A stretch of 63,024 nucleotides of DNA, counting the filler, from Asterionella formosa (lineage: Eukaryota), in NCBI GenBank assembly GCA_002256025.1. It is 13 parts of 13 records of this genome, joined end to end, with 100 filler letters (N's around TTAATTAATTAA, not from the genome) between each part and the next. Parts side by side here need not be neighbours in the genome. Positions count along the whole stretch, not along the records: positions 37,826 to 54,879 come from NKIB01004578.1; 12 more parts are not named here. One strand, 5' to 3'. Within the stretch, counting starts at the first letter, position 1. Every line of letters starts with the position of its first letter. This document shows positions 8,116-52,168 of this stretch, one piece after another. The notes under the pieces were generated by a model. It saw only the letters and a program-made list of their open reading frames with translations, was not told the origin of the DNA and searched no databases. A program made the translations under genes and the position numbers.

Positions 8116-8909
8116 GCTGGAGCAGCGTGATGGTCATACTCAATCAGAATGGATTGGACTGGAATGATCAGAGTTAGGATACTACAGCGATGTGCATGGT
8201 TGCAGCAACCAGATCATCTATGCTACATAATGATGCAAGTCTAAATTGGGCTCAGCTTTCTTTCTTCTTATTTCGGTCTTCGATTGTGTGGTGATGGAAA
8301 GTCAAGCAATGTTGCCTGGTGTGTAAGGACTACAATGTTTCACAATGCATATGTCTCCATTGAAACTCCTTTTTTTTACTTCATTTCTATCCCAAAACAA
8401 CTTTTTCTATTCTCATTTGATGCTACTTATTACATTGCATTTCATACTTTGGTTGCTCCAAGCATCATGTTCAATTTTCATTGATGTTGCATGTTACAAT
8501 CATTCTCGTGTGTTTGACGAATGTTGTACCATCTCTACGCATATTACCGTTATTCTGGCTGTCTTGCTAAAATCGGCAAGGTGCCCCATGTTGCCCTTAA
8601 ATAAAATTTACTTAAGAGATTACTTAGAGCCTAAAAATTACTTAGAAGTACCCGAATGGCAAGACGATAGCTGGAGCGGGAATTGCTGATATTTTGTCCG
8701 GGAGATTTGAACTGGCTGATGCTGTGGTTTCATCGCCTTTCTCAATGATGACCAAACTCATGACTTGCATGGACAATACATGCGGTGGGTGAGACGAGAC
8801 GAGAGGGCTAGACACGGTTGCCTCGTATCCTTTGCTTCCCCTTCATGTCTTATCATTGCAAAATCTCGGATACATCTCATCACCTCTTTTGGCAAAAATT
8901 TCGAAGATA

Positions 8910-10460
8910 ATGTCATTACACGCAATAGTCATGGACGGACCGAGAGTGAAGAAGGAGAGAGTGACGAGTGCTTCATTCAAGTGGCTTTTCAGAATCACGC
9001 TTCCTTTCACATTTCTTTGTGTATTGGGAACACGACCCTTTCATGAGCTACAGTATTATCTCACAGTACGGGGGGTCACCAAAGAAGGCTTGACCACTCA
9101 TTACGAAGTCAGTGGTTACCCTCAGAATCTGAAGGGCGTGATGGACACAAAGGACGACATTTTGGAGTATCCCTGGAATCGTACGTTAAACGGGTGGGAA
9201 CCCCCAAGCTGGATTACTAACTATATCGAATGGCACAGGCAACTGCGATCGACTCATCCTGCATTCAACGGTGACAATGAAGCACCAATTCCCCCTCTGT
9301 ATGTTGTACATTGTCGAGTCGACCGCGGATCATTTGCAGCGAAAAGAATATCAGACTGTGGAGGCCTCCATGATCGGCTGGGTTCACTTCCTTTCGACTT
9401 GTATATCGCGAACCAAACGAAACGACTTCTCCTCTATGTTTGGGAAACCCCCACGTCTCTTGAGACGTTTCTTGTGCCGAATCTTCTGAATTGGACCCTT
9501 GATAGCAGGAATCGCCCAGATCTCCGACTGCTACTAGAGACTGCGCCGAATCTGTTCACAAAGACTACAAAAGCATATGCAAAATCTGGGGGTGTGTGGA
9601 CCCAGATGCCTGAAGCTATTAGTCGTGGTATGAACCATAGTGTTCCTATGTATGTCTCTTTTGTAATTGGTCATCACAGTGAGTACTCCTTTGAAAATGC
9701 TTTAAGGAAACTACAGGAGACTGATATGATACATACAATGCCCACTTTTGGTTGGATATGGCATGCTCTGTTCAAGCCATCTCCAGGTCGTGAAAGATAT
9801 CTTGAAGCAAGCAGAAACGCCATGAATTTGACCAAAGGTGGGTACACCGCAATACATATACGATTGCATTATCCAACTCTGATGAAAGAAGCCAAGGAAA
9901 ATGGTCTGAAACTGAGATCCCTTGATGATCCAGAGAAGTTCAAGAAATATGGGTTTGACAAAGGTGATAGTGGCATTGTTTTCAAGGGAGATGGTAAGAA
10001 GTTCGCTGTTGACATTGGGCTTCATGCAGTTCAATGTGCAAGAAAATTGACCAAAGGCAGTGCTGAGCCCTTGTATTTAATGTCCGATGCAAATTATTTG
10101 GCAGCATACCTTGGTAAACATAGTGGTGCTGGCAGCCAAAAAAGGTTAGGCAGCAAAGATCCACTTGATAAACGGGTCAACAAAATGCTTTCCAAGATCA
10201 CCATAGTGACTCGACATGACATACATAAGAGAAATTATCACATTGATGGACACATGGGCAATGCTACAGATTTTTTCCCTGTTTTTGCCGACTTATACCT
10301 TGGAATGGAGGCACAATGTATTACCTTTGGGTATGGAGGTTTTGGACGATTTGCAAGGCAACTTACTAACAACACATGCTACTCACAACACCAGCTTTTT
10401 CTTAATAATAGCACTTGGTACAAAGGGCATTCTCTTCATGATATAACTCATGTTTGTTAG
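8910..10460 (+). CDS. Putative GT-B fucosyltransferase-like glycosyltransferase, copy 2 (type II membrane protein, 516 aa from first ATG)
   Basis: Intronless ORF with an N-terminal hydrophobic anchor (WLFRITLPFTFLCVLG). CGGLHDRL, YTAIHIRL, LYLMSD and FADLYLG..CITFG resemble motifs shared by alpha-1,2-, alpha-1,6- and O-fucosyltransferases. Confidence 0.7.
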   Translation: MSLHAIVMDGPRVKKERVTSASFKWLFRITLPFTFLCVLGTRPFHELQYYLTVRGVTKEGLTTHYEVSGYPQNLKGVMDTKDDILEYPWNRTLNGWEPPSWITNYIEWHRQLRSTHPAFNGDNEAPIPPLYVVHCRVDRGSFAAKRISDCGGLHDRLGSLPFDLYIANQTKRLLLYVWETPTSLETFLVPNLLNWTLDSRNRPDLRLLLETAPNLFTKTTKAYAKSGGVWTQMPEAISRGMNHSVPMYVSFVIGHHSEYSFENALRKLQETDMIHTMPTFGWIWHALFKPSPGRERYLEASRNAMNLTKGGYTAIHIRLHYPTLMKEAKENGLKLRSLDDPEKFKKYGFDKGDSGIVFKGDGKKFAVDIGLHAVQCARKLTKGSAEPLYLMSDANYLAAYLGKHSGAGSQKRLGSKDPLDKRVNKMLSKITIVTRHDIHKRNYHIDGHMGNATDFFPVFADLYLGMEAQCITFGYGGFGRFARQLTNNTCYSQHQLFLNNSTWYKGHSLHDITHVC

Positions 10461-11499
10461 TAGTGCAAAAGGGATTTATCCTTGTTCATGAGATAAATCA
10501 TTAAAAATACTTTGGATAAATTGCAATGATTGAAGTTCAGAGGTCCTATTGGTACCTATATAAAACATCAACAGCAGTATGAAATGAACAATATTTCATC
10601 GTCAACCAAAAACCTGCCTCTTTCCTCCAATCCATATTGTTTGTTATAGAAATATTGATATTTTTAACATGACTCCAACTTTCATCCCATTCCAATTATA
10701 AGTTTCACTCAAGTAATCGTGAAGATCCATTTGATATAGTGCATCTAAACACTGAATTGACAACTTCACAACTCAACTTTATATTTCAAAATTAATGCAA
10801 GCACAGACTCAGTAGTACAGGTGCAGACCCTGCAACAAGATACATATGATATTCGATAAACAACAGTACTAGCACAGATGATAACAATAATGAAAAAACT
10901 TACAACGTTTTATCAATACTGCAGGACATCCATACAGTTACTTCCAACTTAACACTATTTAGCAAGCAAGTTGTGGTCATTTTCCTGAAATGGACAAGCA
11001 ATGAGGTGTCAGGCGCTTCTGTCATCAAATGTACGAAACGTCATGAATTTATGTTAGGACAAGTCAGCGAAATATTAGTTAAATTCTTCCTAACCATAAC
11101 AACGAAATCACATCTTCCACCCCATCCCTCCTACCACACTGGTGAAGCAAGCCAGTTTCACAGTTAAAAATGGGAAACCCCATAAGTCAAGACACAACTA
11201 TAAAAAAGTCATGAATGATAATTCGGATGAAATTTTCATGGAGAACAAGTATCAACAGACCTCCAATACCTTTTCCAGCAACAATTCAAGAAGACAAAAA
11301 TGAGTCCTTATCTACAGAGGGCCTCACATGGCTCAATAGACCAAAAGGTCTCAAATACGTCCTGCAATGAAGGTACCAAATATACCTGACAAACGAGTCT
11401 GGTGCTGCTGTATCATGTTGTGTGGAATGGATGAAATTCAAGGGAAGAATGGATGAGTTTTATATAGTTTCTTGTAATCACTGTGTACCAGTCAGGATA

Positions 11500-45714: not shown

Positions 45715-47079
45715 CTATATTTCAATTTGTAAGAATGCTTTGATTCCCTTTTCTACCGAGGTGATGATTTTGTCAAGCTTGGTCTGATCCTTAGGCGCTT
45801 TGGGGTTCTCTCCAGGTTTGAGACTCTCAGGGATGACTTCATTGAGGTGCTCGCCGTCTGGAACCAATTCTTCCTCTACCTCCTCGTCAAGTGGTGCGTC
45901 TGGCCCCGAAGGTGGTTTGACTTTCATTTTGACTGATCTTAGTATACCAGCAATGTTTCCAACATCAATACTGCCATAGATGGCTAATGCCCCAATTGAA
46001 ATAGGAATTATAGCCTTGGGGATATGTTTGATAATTCGAATCAAACTTCTACTTTGATGGAGGGGGGCTGTGTCTTCTTTGATCCAATTTGGTGGCATTC
46101 CTTCCAAGGGTCGCCGCAGGCGTTTATGGGCAACAAAAGCAGCAATTTCGGGTTTCATAGCTTTTACTTCGGCTCTTTTATACTTACACTGTCGCACCAA
46201 GATCTGTTCAGTATCCTTATCGACAAACTTCGGGATTGTTCGAATGGGCTCTCCTTCAAGTTCCGAAGACTCTAGTAGTTGTTGGGTCGCCCCTTCCTGT
46301 GGTTGCTCAACAACGTCTTTGTTCCCTTTAAGAAGCTCGTCATTGATGGGAGGAGGTACATCGTCGATTGAGACTCTGTCATCATCATCAGAATCTTCCG
46401 CTCGAACAGTCCCCAGAACAGATTCGCCTTCGTCATAAGCATCGGCAAGTTCTTCCCTGTCGACAAAAGCACTGCTGTCGTCATCAGTGCTAAAAAAATG
46501 ATCACCTGCAGTGTTAGCTGCAACAAATTGTGGCTCCTCCTCTCCTTCGTCAACCGGCCCGTTCAATGCTTCCCACGATTCCACATCTTCCACTTTGACT
46601 ACACGATCCTTCTCCATTGAAAAGACTTCATCGTTAGTTTCTTCAATGTCCTCCATATCCTCACCTTCATCAACGAAATCTGTGTGATCAATGTCGTCTC
46701 GAGATTCTACCTCGTCCGAGGCTTCGAGAGCAGTATCATCCTCCCCTTCAGGCTCATCACCACTCTCGTCCACCTGCTCCTCGTCGTCTGGTTCCTCGTC
46801 GTCGCCTTCATTTGGGGGTTTCTCATTTTCCTCCTCAATTGGAATTGCTTCTTCTGGTACTACCTCCTCAGATTCGTCCTCTTCCTGTTGGATTCCCTCT
46901 AATTCTAAATCGTACTCTTCCCAGTCTTCATCGCCACCGCCTCGCAGGAAAAAGGTAGGAGACCTTCGGCATATGTTCTGACTGCACAATGAGGCACCAT
47001 TCGTCGGAGGGCTCGTAGCGAATGACACCTCCAAGTTTAAAAGGATTGCAAGCACTGCAGACACAACTGCCAGTTTCAT
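45715..47079 (-). CDS. Hypothetical acidic secretory-pathway protein with an LRGG motif and one probable TM segment
   Basis: 454-aa ORF with a signal peptide, FFLRGG, a long Glu/Asp-rich region and hydrophobic AIIPISIGALAIYG. Confidence 0.75.
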   Translation of the reverse strand: MKLAVVSAVLAILLNLEVSFATSPPTNGASLCSQNICRRSPTFFLRGGGDEDWEEYDLELEGIQQEEDESEEVVPEEAIPIEEENEKPPNEGDDEEPDDEEQVDESGDEPEGEDDTALEASDEVESRDDIDHTDFVDEGEDMEDIEETNDEVFSMEKDRVVKVEDVESWEALNGPVDEGEEEPQFVAANTAGDHFFSTDDDSSAFVDREELADAYDEGESVLGTVRAEDSDDDDRVSIDDVPPPINDELLKGNKDVVEQPQEGATQQLLESSELEGEPIRTIPKFVDKDTEQILVRQCKYKRAEVKAMKPEIAAFVAHKRLRRPLEGMPPNWIKEDTAPLHQSRSLIRIIKHIPKAIIPISIGALAIYGSIDVGNIAGILRSVKMKVKPPSGPDAPLDEEVEEELVPDGEHLNEVIPESLKPGENPKAPKDQTKLDKIITSVEKGIKAFLQIEI

Positions 47080-47986
47080 GGTGGTTCTTAAAGGATATGA
47101 CGTATATACCGGTGGGCTGCCAAATCTGTCAAGGCGTCAGTCAACCAATGGTACGACGAGAACTCGACTACTTTTCTACTCAAGCGACCGATGGGACTTG
47201 TTATTTTAGTTTCGGTACGTCAGATTACTGGTATGGTACCTGGTAACCATCAGGTATATAGTATTCAATCTAGTCGTCCGTTGTTTTTTATACAGCTTAT
47301 TATTTATTCATTTAGTTAATAAATGTACGGAGTATTATTATGTATGCTGATGGCTGATGATGGTGATGCAAGAATGTAAAACACGGATGTACGCAGTGGG
47401 GTGTACTGGGTGATGGTACCTGGTACCCGCCATCCATTGGTAACAGTAAAAGCAGATCACAACAAGGTACCGGTACATAAGGAGATGATGATATCTTTAC
47501 ACTTGGCACTCAGCATGGTGCTATCTCCCCATGTTGGGTTCACTGACGTTGGTAATCATGGTGCGTACATATACTGGTATGGATGAACCGGCGGTTTCTT
47601 AACGTCAATATGTAAATAAGTATACTCAATCATGAATATAGGTATATATTTCATACTAATACATGAAGTGGTGATATTACATCCACAACTGGTAACCACT
47701 GGGAGTCTACCGGTACATTAATTGATATTTCTCTCGCCGCCAGAGGCATATTTTATCGATATGATGTGCATATCAATGTGAGGCAGAGGTAGTAGCCATA
47801 TAGAAATAAAAATGCAGCAGTCCTGAAAATGATTCATTGTCATCATCCAAGCAAGAATGGCACCCTTGCTTTGTATTGAAGGAATATAACAATAAATGTG
47901 TAGAACTTGAAGTGATCCTATAATCTATGGGTAATATGAATACATGTATTGATGAGCCACATCAATCCAGAGCCTATGTATGTTAT

Positions 47987-48190
47987 ATCTATGTGTGGAA
48001 TCAGTTTCATCCTATGTGAGAAGGGAAATGGCTTTTGACCATCATTGGAGATCATTTTAATTTCCTTCAGGTTTTATATTATTATTACAGTTTACACTTT
48101 AGATCTATGTGTGGAATAACTAACATCCTACGTGAGAAGTGAAATGGATTGACAATTATTGGAGATCATATCAATTTCCTTCAGTTTTAT
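47987..48190 (+). repeat. Imperfect tandem duplication (about 116-bp period) upstream of queH
   Basis: atctatgtgtggaat...catccta(t/c)gtgagaag...ttggagatcat...aatttccttcag at 47987 and 48103. Confidence 0.85.
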
Positions 48191-48424
48191 TTCATAATTT
48201 TAGTTAACGCTCTACCAGTCTACATGTATTCGCTACGTATTATCAAGTATTCCCAAAGAGGGTACATATCGTTTTCTGGTTAACGTGATTATCCACCTCA
48301 TTTTCACGGTACCAAGCAATTATTAATGATTTACATACTCATATATTCATACATTATATATTATTTGTGCAGATGATTTCATCGATCAGAGCCAGGTCAA
48401 ATAATCCAACAAGCTCCTCCCAAC

Positions 48425-49387
48425 ATGCCTGCAGCCGATTGCGATCAAGGGTTAAAGTATCATGAAGGTGGTGCATTGCCCGACAACGCTCCAATATGGG
48501 CAGTTGCTGCGAGCGAACGAATCAAAACGAAACGAACCATGGGAATTCTGGGTAGTTGTGCCATTCCTCCAAATGGTGTGACTCGGGTTCTACTTCATAG
48601 CTGCTGTGCACCTTGTTCTGGTGCCATGGTGGAGGAAATGTGTGCTTCGAAGCAGTTGGAGGCAGTGGTTGTATTTTTCTACAATCCAAACATCCATCCC
48701 AGAACCGAATACATCATCCGAAAGGAGGAAAACAAGCGCTTTTGTGAAAAACTAGGCGTTGCATTCGTTGATTGTGACTACGATGTTCAGAACTGGTACA
48801 GCCGTGTGAAAGGAATGGAGTACGACCCAGAGAGAGGACGTAGATGCACAGAATGCTTTGACATGAGAATGGAGCGAGCTGCCTTGTATGCCCACGAGCA
48901 TGGATTCCATGCCATCGCCACCACAAACGCTACATCCAGGTGGAAGGATGAAACGCAAGTGGACGAATCGGGATATAGGGCTGCAGATCGGTACGACGGC
49001 CTTCAATATTGGTCATTCAATTGGCAATCGGATGAAATGACGATGCGAAAGTACGAGATTTCGGCTCTCGAACGATTCTACAAGCAGGAATATTGCGGCT
49101 GCTCCTACTCCCTACGGGACTCCAACGAATGGAGGAAAGCAAATGGTATACCAAAAATTCAAATCGGCGGAGAGACCGCAGGTATGGGTGAGCGCTATTT
49201 TTCGGATCCCCTCATTGATGCTGAAGAGGAGTCTCAAGCTGTTGTTGACGAGTTCTTTTCTCAGGCAAACGAGATAGCCAAGGCTGGCAATGATGTTCTC
49301 GATAGGAAAAAAAGGATTGCGGTATACAAAGACCGAAGGAAGATCGAAGCTATTGATGGGGTGTCAAATGGTATTAACAATTGGTAG
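48425..49387 (+). CDS. queH: Epoxyqueuosine reductase QueH (DUF208 family), intronless, 320 aa
   Basis: Signature motifs LLHSCCAPCS, FFYNPNIHP..EY..RKEE, GMEYDPERGRRCTECFDMRME, SRWK and FYKQEYCGCSYS. Confidence 0.93.
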   Translation: MPAADCDQGLKYHEGGALPDNAPIWAVAASERIKTKRTMGILGSCAIPPNGVTRVLLHSCCAPCSGAMVEEMCASKQLEAVVVFFYNPNIHPRTEYIIRKEENKRFCEKLGVAFVDCDYDVQNWYSRVKGMEYDPERGRRCTECFDMRMERAALYAHEHGFHAIATTNATSRWKDETQVDESGYRAADRYDGLQYWSFNWQSDEMTMRKYEISALERFYKQEYCGCSYSLRDSNEWRKANGIPKIQIGGETAGMGERYFSDPLIDAEEESQAVVDEFFSQANEIAKAGNDVLDRKKRIAVYKDRRKIEAIDGVSNGINNW

Positions 49388-49652
49388 CGTTTTACAGGTG
49401 CCGGTTCATCGTTCAACCTCATTCACTAGATTCATTTTCAGGTTCTTCTGTTGTGTACAATGTGTGACAAAGAGTTTCCATAAAATCGTGATAGCAACCA
49501 CTGATGCTTGCAGCAATCTAATGAATAATTTCCCTGGACCCTAGACTTTCACTTCAGCTAGCGATGAAAGTCGATAGGTAACGAGTCTGAGTAAAACATA
49601 ATTTCTAATGAACAAATGAATATCCTCTTAACCTGGAAGAATGAATAGGTGT

Positions 49653-51239
49653 TCAGGAAAAGTCGCGATCTGGGAACAAGCGAGGTGCAGCCAAAGTCCA
49701 AACATAGAGGCCGATTGCCAACCACTGGCTGATTCCAATAATAGCCATGTTGGCTCTGCCAACTGTAGGATTCGCAGCATTATGAGCATCGTTCAATTCT
49801 TCAATTGTTCCCCACCCAGTGAGTGTCATAGCGACCCAGCAGCAAATGAGAGCCATAACGACATTCAACTTCCAAACATCTGAACCTTCCATGCCCGTTG
49901 AAGTTGACTGTTGCATGACCACGCCAGTGGGTTGCTGCCCTTCGGGGTCAAGGAAAGGAACTTCCAAGTTGATAGAGTCAGAGTTATGAGGTGGCAAAGG
50001 TGACATTGCCTTGGTGGATTGAACTCTGAAAATCCAGGAGCGAATGACAGTGTTAGATAAAAGGTAAGCAAAACGACAGGAACCTCCACGGGAACAACTT
50101 ACGCTCCGACAGTAAGACGCCGTTCTGCAGACCAAGCCCATCCAACCCATACGAGAGACACTGAAGTCAAAGCAAGTCCAACAACTATTCCCCATATATC
50201 ATCGTATCCAAGCATTGGGTTGCAGGTACCCTTGGGGTTTTTCGAAACCATTCCATATGCCAAATAGGTTGCGTAAACACTAATAACCGAGGAAGTCAAT
50301 AGACTGCCTTCCGTTCCAGAAAGTTGAAGGATTGTCATTCCAATGATTCCAAGCAATGTAAGGGTAATGATCCAAGTGTTTTCAGGGCAATCATCAAATA
50401 AGCTGTACAACAATGATATTCCAACAACAGAAGCAGAGAACAAGAAGACGCAAGTGGCCAGGATAGCTTGGAGCCACTTCCCGCCGCTTCCGTACGAGGT
50501 TCTGTCGCATTCATTTGATTTTTCAACCCAATCATCATTCCAGTTGTACGCCACATCGATCAAGATAACTTGCTGCAACACGACAAACACCGCAGCTCCA
50601 AATCTAGCCACCCACAGAAAGAACCCACTAAATAAGGGGTAGTTGGGTATGAACATGGTAAAAAAGAGAGCAAAGAGGTAAATCATGTATTTGGCAGGCC
50701 AAGCTTCTCGATTCAAGTGAGGCACCATCTTGGTAGAAAATGCCTGTACCCCAAAGAAGATCGCAGCTACAAACATGGGGCGGTAGACGCCAGCATTTCC
50801 GGCGCACTGGCTGAGCAAATCTCCCTCGTATTTGCTGCATTTTTCGTCTTTCCACGCGTGAAATACTAACTTTCCAGTGCCCGGAATGGCCCTGTATGTC
50901 TTCCAGACCCATCCTTCTTCTTGAACAATAGAAGGTCCGACTTGGTACTGAAACCAGAGAGCAAACGCAATGGCCATGGCGAGAAGCAGGACTGATCGCC
51001 TGCGTCCCGTCGTTCCTTCAGCAGTGGAGCCGAAGCAAGTGGTACAGAGACTTCCAGCTGCCGTGAAGCAGCAATAGGTCAATGCGAGCGACATTGTCGA
51101 TCCCTAGGAATAAAACGACGAGTAGTGAGCGTCAGACAAATCGACACGATTGAACAACGGCAGAACAAAGCCAATAATACCGGCAGGGATAGCTTCTACG
51201 CCGCTTTCTTTCCTTTAACCTTGCCCATGATCTTACCAT
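49653..51239 (-). CDS. SERINC: Serine incorporator (Serinc/TDE family), three exons (51239-51237, 51103-50103, 50025-49653)
   Basis: Multi-TM protein with QVILIDVAYNWNDDW, GSLLTSSVI, AMTLTGW and C-terminal LYVWTLAAPRLFPDRDFS. An ATG-only first exon gives MGST; the 133- and 77-nt GT..AG introns keep the frame. Confidence 0.93.
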
Positions 51240-52168
51240 TGTTTACAGAGAGAGAGCGAGCGAAGATTAAAAAAGTGAATTACCGGTATGTATTCTTGGT
51301 CAAGAAGGAGAGTTCAACGACAAGAAATGCAACATGAACCGATCTGAGGTGTGTTCCTTCTGTTAACTGATGCATACTGGTAGTATCAGGTAACCTGGTA
51401 CCAGGTACCAGGTACAACACGACAGAACAGTACATTACATAGTATTGTTGTTGTAAAGTATGTAACACTGTACAGTTCATTCAGCACTGTGCTCTACATA
51501 GTATTTTGTATGCACGGTTCAATGTACGTACCGGTAGATGTAGACTACGAGTAGGTAGTACCAGGTACCCTGGTACCTGGTAGCAGCACCACGTGCCGAA
51601 CCAGGTACCTTACTCCGCAGCTCCGGAGTACTACGTAGATACCAGGTACCCTGGTACTAGTAAAATGCGCGCATGGATACACCGCCATGTAGAAACATCG
51701 GCACGACTGCCGCCACTGCGATATTTATTTGCATTTGTGTACAAATACATTCCGGTAGCTAAAATAGGTCGAAAATATGTATCGGTAGAAACTTGGTCGT
51801 ACATACAGATCAGTATCATGGTTTGTACATTTGATGCTGTACACAAAGCGAACCACTCTGATTTCAGTCCGTCATAGCTACAATAGAAGTTGTACTGAGG
51901 GCTGTTTGGATACCTTCCCACCTTGTATTATTTACACACCATCCTTCCTCACACAAGAACAAGTCCAATTTCAAAAATCTTTTATGAATTTACATACAAT
52001 TCCTCATACATTTACCGGTATTTGGCTCATCGCCCGTGTTTATACCTTTGACACAACGATTCTCATTTGTTGATGTGTCGCTATGCTCACAAAATTTACA
52101 TCACTCAAATTTCCAAAGAAAACTCCGCTTAATATAATCGAACTCATATCCAAGTTAAACTAACCACC

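Follow-up and report, generated by a model that had tools for sequence, protein, structure and literature searches.

The present work deals with a stretch of 63,024 nucleotides from the diatom Asterionella formosa (GenBank assembly GCA_002256025.1), which consists of 13 joined parts and is called here the window, and in particular with the gene at positions 48425 to 49387 of this stretch. The gene encodes QueH, the epoxyqueuosine reductase, as is seen from the identity of the protein, its fold and its conserved cysteines. It is a genuine nuclear gene of the diatom, integrated in a eukaryotic setting; it is apparently transcribed, and its sequence is present in RNA libraries. The protein probably reduces epoxyqueuosine (oQ) to queuosine (Q) on tRNA after the action of QueA, independently of cobalamin (vitamin B12), and the gene goes back to a single ancient acquisition from bacteria. 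The gene and its parts lie in the window as follows.

48363 to 48424, plus strand: 5' leader of QueH, probably untranslated; the RNA contigs of two studies start at 48363 and 48367.
48425 to 49387, plus strand: QueH coding sequence, 320 amino acids (aa) and a stop codon, intron-free, from the translation of the open reading frame (ORF), Pfam and unjointed RNA contigs.
48425 to 48586, plus strand: N-terminal extension, aa 1-54, with the motif L-x-Y-S/H-E-G..LP..AP.WAVAASER, kept in diatoms in the alignments.
48587 to 49117, plus strand: catalytic core, aa 55-231, the Pfam span, with C60, C61, C64, C141, C144, C224 and C226.
49118 to 49384, plus strand: C-terminal extension, aa 232-320, reading SLRDSNEWRKANGIPKIQIGG..YFSDP..DAEEESQ.VVDEFF..YKDRRK..NNW.

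An initial annotation of this DNA had described an uninterrupted, intronless ORF of 320 aa with CCAPC, CxxC and CGC motifs, about 50 extra residues before LLHSCC and about 90 after CGC. The ORF list and the translation bear this out: the motifs are C60-C61-A-P-C64, C141-x-x-C144 and C224-G-C226, and 55 residues were counted ahead of LLHSCC and 94 beyond CGC. The ORF matches the Pfam family QueH (PF02677) far beyond chance, with an E value of 2.6e-55 and a score of 187.7 bits, the cut-off being 23.5; the match takes in positions 1-174 of the 175 of the profile and residues 55-231 of the protein. Among solved structures in the Protein Data Bank (PDB), QueH of T. maritima (7lc5/9dco) was matched with E 9.7e-19, residues 54-235 aligning to chain residues 3-180. 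An AlphaFold model was built from 95 homologues (mean predicted local distance difference test, pLDDT, 85.4; predicted template modelling score, pTM, 0.84). In Foldseek it superposed on 7lc5 with E 2.9e-11, a target-normalised template modelling (TM) score of 0.90 and a root-mean-square deviation of 2.0 Å over 181 columns, and the folds ranked after QueH (TilS, TtuA, NcsA and other alpha-hydrolase-like enzymes) had E of at least 1.6e-4. The protein is therefore modelled with the adenine-nucleotide alpha-hydrolase-like core of solved QueH. All the cysteines listed above for the core are invariant in 95/95 aligned homologues and align with those of T. maritima QueH. C60 stands opposite T. maritima Cys9. 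Opposite C64 is position 13, occupied by N in the aligned chain, which is that of the D13N mutant (entry 9dco); structures of T. maritima QueH mutated at positions 9 and 13 are available as PDB entries 9d86 and 9dco. The metal ligands of QueH are taken to be the cysteines in its CC(AP)C, CxxC and CGC motifs.

The two extensions flank this core. The N-terminal one has no Pfam match; it is acidic, with five acidic residues in the first 31 of the protein, and by reading it contains no presequence-like or signal-like stretch. A longer N-terminal form is ruled out because a stop codon lies upstream in frame with QueH (TGA at 48374-48376, 17 codons 5' of the ATG). In the model a helix is formed by residues 24-39 (pLDDT 82-88) in the N-terminal extension and further helices by residues 262-268, 271-285 and 291-300 (pLDDT 80-88) in the C-terminal one, of which the final 15 residues are modelled with pLDDT below 50. 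As for the leader, the ends of RNA contigs cannot establish the start of the QueH transcript. The part of it covered by RNA contigs contains an ATG at 48373, out of the QueH frame, and the short upstream frame that begins there (48373-48465) would overlap the QueH start codon.

QueH is intron-free and its family is overwhelmingly bacterial, and bacterial QueH cores reach 44-60% identity to it. These features could be expected of a bacterial contaminant misassembled onto diatom DNA, or of a gene acquired very recently by this strain alone, an explanation which we regard as refuted. The initial annotation had already argued from the neighbouring Serinc gene against a contaminant, and had named coverage of 47000-51300, a chimeric join of QueH and Serinc and the presence of RNA as points to be checked. 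Its argument held on all of these, by an independent DNA contig, by RNA contigs in which QueH stands beside spliced Serinc, and by a base composition like that of the neighbours. The features downstream of QueH are as follows.

49388 to 49652, no strand: spacer between the convergent stop codons of QueH and Serinc, 265 bp, crossed by RNA contigs.
49653 to 51300, minus strand: Serinc gene, with coding exons 49653-50025 and 50103-51094 and an exon of the 5' untranslated region (UTR) from 51237 upward.

Contigs from four public runs were aligned to 47000-51300. A single contig of 8,084 nt from the DNA run of another study (X2) spans the whole of these 4.3 kb with 22 differences and 4 gaps, so that the join is not chimeric, and DNA contigs of a third study (X6) lead from the upstream region into QueH (47934-49333) and from the QueH 3' end into Serinc (49338-50427). 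The entire QueH ORF is present, unjointed, in poly(A) RNA contigs of two studies (48363-49947 in X11 and 48367-50025 in X13). The X13 contig runs on from QueH into Serinc with both Serinc introns removed, and it is RNA-derived because the spliced joints of Serinc lie in the same contig. It should be kept in mind that RNA libraries can contain DNA and that contigs give no strand, ends or level of RNA. The interval 47288-48295 is left uncovered by the RNA contigs of both RNA runs and is covered by the DNA runs, and this was not used as evidence. In GC content and GC content at third codon positions, QueH (0.479 and 0.483) is like its neighbours, the values being 0.481 and 0.497 for Serinc and, for six other ORFs, 0.435-0.484 and 0.39-0.467.

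Serinc itself is matched by Pfam PF03348 on two ORFs (E 1.6e-42 and 5.6e-12). The RNA contigs place its intron 1 at 50026-50102 (77 nt, GTAAGT..CAG on the minus strand) and its intron 2, within the 5' UTR, at 51103/4-51235/6 (133 nt, GT..AG with the cut shifted by 1). The spliced frame of 454 aa has no internal stop, begins with the ATG at 51094 and ends with the stop codon at 49653. The three exons first proposed for this gene are therefore present, the first of them being 5' UTR and only two coding, and the gap of 265 bp to QueH was confirmed from the coordinates of the stop codons. Elsewhere the window encodes typically eukaryotic proteins (CWC25/Cir_N, tesmin-CXC, fasciclin and leucine-rich repeat proteins).

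A few observations on the same region may be added. Between the aligned runs, which come from other strains, and the window, QueH has only two coding differences: one is C>G at 48537, which changes Thr38 to Ser within a variable linker, and the other is T>C at 48805, in a third codon position. A tandem pair of a unit of about 115 bp (47983 to 48190, plus strand; 85-88% identity) lies 235-440 bp 5' of the QueH start; the core motif of this unit has 2 occurrences in the window against 0 expected, and is found nowhere else in it. The upstream neighbour of QueH (45715-47079, minus strand) is a gene for a protein of 454 aa that is strongly acidic, is hydrophobic at its N-terminus and is not matched by Pfam; the 5' end of this gene is covered by RNA contigs. 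Neither Serinc nor this acidic-protein gene stands beside QueH in any of 80 metagenome loci (0/80), of which 14 are diatom-type with at least 1.5 kb downstream.

The distribution of the gene among diatoms bears on its age. A word-indexed protein search returned 7,995 significant proteins, and the best 120 of these 7,995 are orthologues at 52-88% identity. Wherever an organism is named among these 120, it is a diatom (8/8), namely Skeletonema menzelii, Thalassiosira profunda, Chaetoceros debilis, C. tenuissimus, Seminavis robusta, Stephanodiscus triporus, Proboscia inermis and a Bacillariaceae metagenome-assembled genome (MAG), and some of these diatom proteins are already auto-named 'Epoxyqueuosine reductase QueH' in databases. 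The alignment shows that both extensions are conserved in diatoms, the N-terminal one as L.YSEG..LP..AP.WAVAASER and the C-terminal one as ..IPKIQIGG..YFSDP..DA.EESQ.VVDEFF..YKDRRK..GLNNW. Thus, the idea of an isolated or recent acquisition by this alga did not survive: the gene is old and has been kept across the diatoms.

In the metagenomes, 38 loci among the 80 have a match that begins no later than residue 21 and extends at least to residue 313, and several are split into 2-3 pieces in different frames. The full QueH frame is restored by GT..AG introns in two of them, with introns of 101 and 104 nt in L118:8095-9244 and one of 228 nt in L103:353-1519; in a third (L147) no GT..AG pair was found within the ranges searched. 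Because orthologues carry GT..AG introns, QueH is a resident, intron-acquiring nuclear gene of diatoms, of which the copy in the window happens to be intron-free. The spread of orthologues at such identities, some of them with spliceosomal introns, speaks equally against a contaminant or a strain-private transfer.

Outside the diatoms, the relatives of this protein are found in other eukaryotic plankton. An exhaustive search of cluster representatives gave 3,768 matches at E <= 0.001, and among the best 150 of these 3,768 the best non-diatom relatives have 55-64% identity. When the 26 nearest representatives were scanned with Pfam, 10 carried QueA (PF02547) and QueH in one polypeptide. Such fusions are found in green algae (824 aa; Pycnococcus provasolii GHP10294.1 and Pseudoscourfieldia marina), in a choanoflagellate (Stephanoeca diplocostata, EukProt, 856 aa) and, as FolD-PCD-QueA-QueH proteins (PCD being pterin-4a-carbinolamine dehydratase), in the dinoflagellates Polarella glacialis and Symbiodinium spp.; one fusion cluster bears a TARA ocean label. 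The C-terminal tail is common to diatom QueH and the QueA-QueH fusions, including the final NNW or ENW. The tail pattern of the clade (..D..EES..VV..FF.., Y..RRK and a terminal NW) is present in the window protein, and D265, E268, E269, V274, F277, F278, Y301, R304, K306, N319 and W320 are invariant in two alignments. Bacterial relatives with 44-60% core identity end soon past IG.KYYG, and in the alignments the extension past IGG is peculiar to the eukaryotic QueH clade. The ES..VV..FF motif was seen in 1/80 bacterial genome loci, in a member of the Parachlamydiaceae, and in 0/10 bacterial-type metagenome loci.

Phylogeny, which the initial annotation had suggested for the DUF208 family, agrees with this. 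A tree of 112 rows, holding 78 of the 80 bacterial loci (L022 and L025, with ORF products of less than 180 aa, were left out), placed 24/24 eukaryote-type QueH in a single clade with SH-aLRT 100. In a careful tree of 55 rows the eukaryotic clade had support of 100/97 and the diatoms formed one group (94/79), the sister of the eukaryotic clade being the sampled bacteria of the QueH subfamily (96/91). Support of 100/97 for a eukaryotic clade is again not what a contaminant or a recent transfer would give. On the evidence of these trees and alignments, diatom QueH shares one origin with green-algal, dinoflagellate and choanoflagellate QueH, and one ancient bacterial acquisition would have given rise both to diatom QueH and to the QueA-QueH fusions of the plankton. 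The view of QueH as a bacterially derived gene in a eukaryote therefore stands in part: the gene is a true QueH, bacterial in ancestry and placed on a nuclear contig of the diatom, and it is not a lone case, its eukaryotic origin being shared.

A chlamydial donor was considered as one possibility. The locus concerned (L035:301-1642, from a Parachlamydiaceae MAG) has queA directly 5' of queH and a eukaryote-type tail, ..EDESEAVVNQFF.., which resembles the eukaryotic C-terminal extension, and it is the only such locus among the 80 bacterial ones. The 55-row tree groups it with Rickettsiales-like bacteria and not beside the eukaryotes; a forced union of L035 with the eukaryotes was neither supported nor rejected by the approximately unbiased (AU) test (p 0.347). 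In three bacterial-type metagenome contigs (L153, L155 and L157, at about 8900-10700) queA ends where queH begins, the two being adjacent or overlapping, and those that are in the tree (L153 and L155) group with Rickettsiales-like QueH. It could be that the queA-queH order of these three contigs preceded the eukaryotic fusion.

The link to QueA is what gives the diatom protein a probable function. QueA was found on 11 of the 80 metagenome loci: in 7 it lies directly upstream on the same strand (fusion-type), in 3 it is a bacterial-type neighbour, and the remaining one is L086. This is a Thalassiosirales-like diatom metagenome contig of 5,977 bp (L086:738-5919), on which QueH stands head-to-head with a QueA gene across a spacer of 616 bp. 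Its QueH has 99% identity to a diatom cluster (P0040) and 80% to the QueH of Skeletonema and Thalassiosira. The partner ORF is unbroken and encodes 1,179 aa with NMT1/THI5-like, FolD, PCD and QueA domains (E 3.5e-80 for QueA); its relatives are at 50% proteins without QueH (P0496, P0516 and P0499) and at 35% dinoflagellate proteins with QueH appended. Two observations make the completion of queuosine without B12 the best interpretation of diatom QueH: its nearest relatives are fusions with QueA, and a diatom contig pairs QueH with QueA.

In this reading the iron-sulfur site of QueH would reduce the epoxide of oQ, at position 34 of tRNA-Asp, tRNA-Asn, tRNA-His and tRNA-Tyr, to give Q. QueH would act next after QueA and without cobalamin, and the route would be of the bacterial type, starting from the salvaged precursor base preQ1 and not from finished queuine. 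In diatoms the enzyme is not joined to other domains; it has a conserved N-terminal helix of its own and, at the other end, the C-terminal tail of the clade. For this species we infer the substrate of QueH, the presence of QueA and of a suitable tRNA-guanine transglycosylase (TGT), the cell compartment and the function of both tails.

The diatom N-terminal extension was also considered as a relic of a QueA C-terminus, and this idea was rejected. MAFFT had put L.YSEG on FLSYGDA. When a hidden Markov model of 62 diatom N-termini was run against 259 QueA-bearing proteins the best independent E value (i-E) was 2.6, and nothing stood above the controls, which gave 0.29 (reversed) and 2.5 (shuffled).

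Folate and pterin enzymes recur around this pair. Diatom-like and dinoflagellate proteins (P0122, P0481, P0496 and P0516) combine FolD and PCD with QueA, some of them including QueH and others not, and in 4 of the 26 representatives QueH is fused to 5-formyl-tetrahydrofolate (5-formyl-THF) cyclo-ligase (3) or to HPPK (1), namely in P0172, P0212, P0242 and P0202. We know of no report in which the physiological reductant of QueH was identified. A wider proposal can be put forward only tentatively, as it seems to us to have somewhat less than an even chance: diatoms, dinoflagellates, some prasinophytes and a choanoflagellate may all keep a working QueA and QueH, of one ancient origin, that lead from preQ1 to Q on their own tRNA without B12, and would then not rely on finished queuine alone. 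In that case the NNW tail and the fusions to FolD, PCD, 5-formyl-THF cyclo-ligase and HPPK could indicate that the reductase receives its electrons from folate or pterin metabolism or is regulated through it.

The same fusions, together with N- and C-terminal extensions that are missing from bacterial QueH, might be taken to mean that the enzyme has been repurposed, either for another epoxide or 7-deazaguanine derivative or for a redox role tied to folate and pterin metabolism. Such a change of function appears improbable. No variation is seen in the core motifs or in any cysteine of the QueH site, the core superposes on QueH with TM 0.90, and the commonest fusion partner is QueA, the maker of the substrate of QueH.

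Several points weigh against the proposal that diatom QueH finishes queuosine after QueA. NCBIfam gave 0 families at E <= 0.01 for the QueH ORF; this library names prokaryotic proteins, and its null was not weighed against the membership given by Pfam and the fold. The contigs give neither the level nor the strand of QueH expression. QueA was not found in the 63-kb window by tblastn, and QueA-centred database searches returned no diatom-named protein among the matches listed (0/120 and 0/120), while standalone QueA of Prymnesium parvum, Galdieria sulphuraria and Aplanochytrium minuta was returned. Look-ups of QueA and QueH in the ESM Atlas gave bacterial clusters only and no diatom QueA. The only diatom QueA found is the one on the metagenome contig L086, and the head-to-head pairing seen there is not general, being present in 1 of the 13 diatom-type loci whose upstream sequence reaches 1.3 kb or more. 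Enzymatic or nucleoside data on any eukaryotic QueH were not found in the literature searched. Finally, by reading, the QueA-bearing proteins (P0360, P0363, P0361, P0137 and the L086 ORF) have arginine-rich, presequence-like N-termini, which diatom QueH does not have, and on this basis the compartments of QueH and QueA may not match.

Because these compartments may differ, we have kept an alternative in which QueA plays no part. QueH would then serve repair or salvage: epoxyqueuine or epoxyqueuosine would come from B12-starved bacteria, the base would be inserted by the eukaryotic TGT, and a cytosolic QueH would reduce oQ bound to tRNA, or the free nucleoside or nucleotide. Besides the N-terminus of diatom QueH and the lack of diatom-named QueA among the matches listed, this is favoured by the finding that a QueH split from QueA is confined to the diatom branch and a few 'solo' forms, and by PDB entry 9deu, in which T. 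maritima QueH, according to the title, binds the free nucleoside queuosine. We consider it unlikely all the same, as a diatom contig does pair the two genes, in the closest relatives QueH and QueA are physically one protein, and uptake of epoxyqueuine by any organism is not reported in the literature searched. A reductase acting on tRNA after QueA thus remains the function that we favour.

As a member of its family diatom QueH is ordinary; what is unusual is a B12-independent reductase that belongs to a eukaryotic clade with tails of its own and with fusions to QueA. Reviews state, in the parts available to us, that Q synthesis is confined to bacteria and that eukaryotes have to salvage queuine (PMC5372724, PMC5699537, PMC11695743). 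A eukaryotic QueH family that is old and spread through the plankton fits poorly with this textbook view of scavenging only. According to the initial annotation, a broad and already characterised vertical presence in eukaryotes would take away the novelty; the presence is indeed broad, and the proteins are auto-named, and no paper describing or characterising a eukaryotic QueH was found in full-text literature searches, some of which were badly framed.

The wider interest lies in the ecology of the organisms concerned. Cobalamin is often limiting for phytoplankton. If QueH is active, the queuosine status of these algae would be tied to bacterial precursors such as preQ1 and not to cobalamin, and a further micronutrient link between algae and bacteria would be added. 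Diatoms are major primary producers, and QueH has been kept under selection across them, which would make it a second, B12-independent version beside the algal exception based on QueG. In several unrelated lineages of the plankton QueH is fused to QueA. A eukaryotic QueH clade is now defined, with testable features in its two tails, its QueA fusions and the head-to-head pairing with FolD-PCD-QueA.

With reference to known systems, bacterial QueH is described, in the part of the source available, as the epoxyqueuosine reductase that takes the place of QueG in some bacteria and does not need cobalamin (PMC5372724). The solved T. maritima enzyme (PDB 7lc5/7lc7/9deu) and window QueH are alike in the full-profile Pfam match, in fold (TM 0.90) and in the CC..C, CxxC and CGC cysteines. 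The identity of window QueH is 27% to T. maritima QueH and 44-60% to the enzymes of proteobacteria, Bacteroidota, Verrucomicrobiota, Rickettsiales and Parachlamydiaceae. It differs from bacterial QueH in being nuclear, in its N-terminal extension of 54 residues and in its tail of about 70 residues, which is acidic and then basic and ends in NNW. In comparison with T. maritima QueH it has Cys at the position of residue 13, as do 95/95 aligned homologues.

QueG (EC 1.17.99.6, with cobalamin and [4Fe-4S]) carries out the same reaction as that predicted for QueH, from oQ34 to Q34 on tRNA, and the two families are non-homologous, QueG requiring B12 and QueH not, as given by Pfam naming and by the available part of PMC5372724. 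A precedent for a bacterial-type route in algae is the mitochondrial one of BL-TGT, QueA, QueG and YhhQ put forward for two small algal groups, Chloropicon and the red algae (Genome Biol Evol 2025, PMC12301720); the article calls this algal route the first such report, and in its accessible portion QueH is mentioned 0 times. The situation in diatoms is similar in that a eukaryotic alga has bacterial enzymes for the last tRNA-bound steps of Q, with QueA present in the relatives of diatom QueH. It is different in that the Chloropicon and red-algal route uses the cobalamin-dependent QueG, whereas the diatom has the B12-independent QueH with, by reading, no evident mitochondrial presequence. The closest in descent are the eukaryotic QueA-QueH fusions in the database entries, which fall in the same clade as diatom QueH (100/97), have 52-64% identity to it and share the tail ending in NNW or ENW. 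In contrast to these fusions, diatom QueH is a separate gene, without a QueA domain or a presequence-like N-terminus, and it carries an N-terminal motif of its own.

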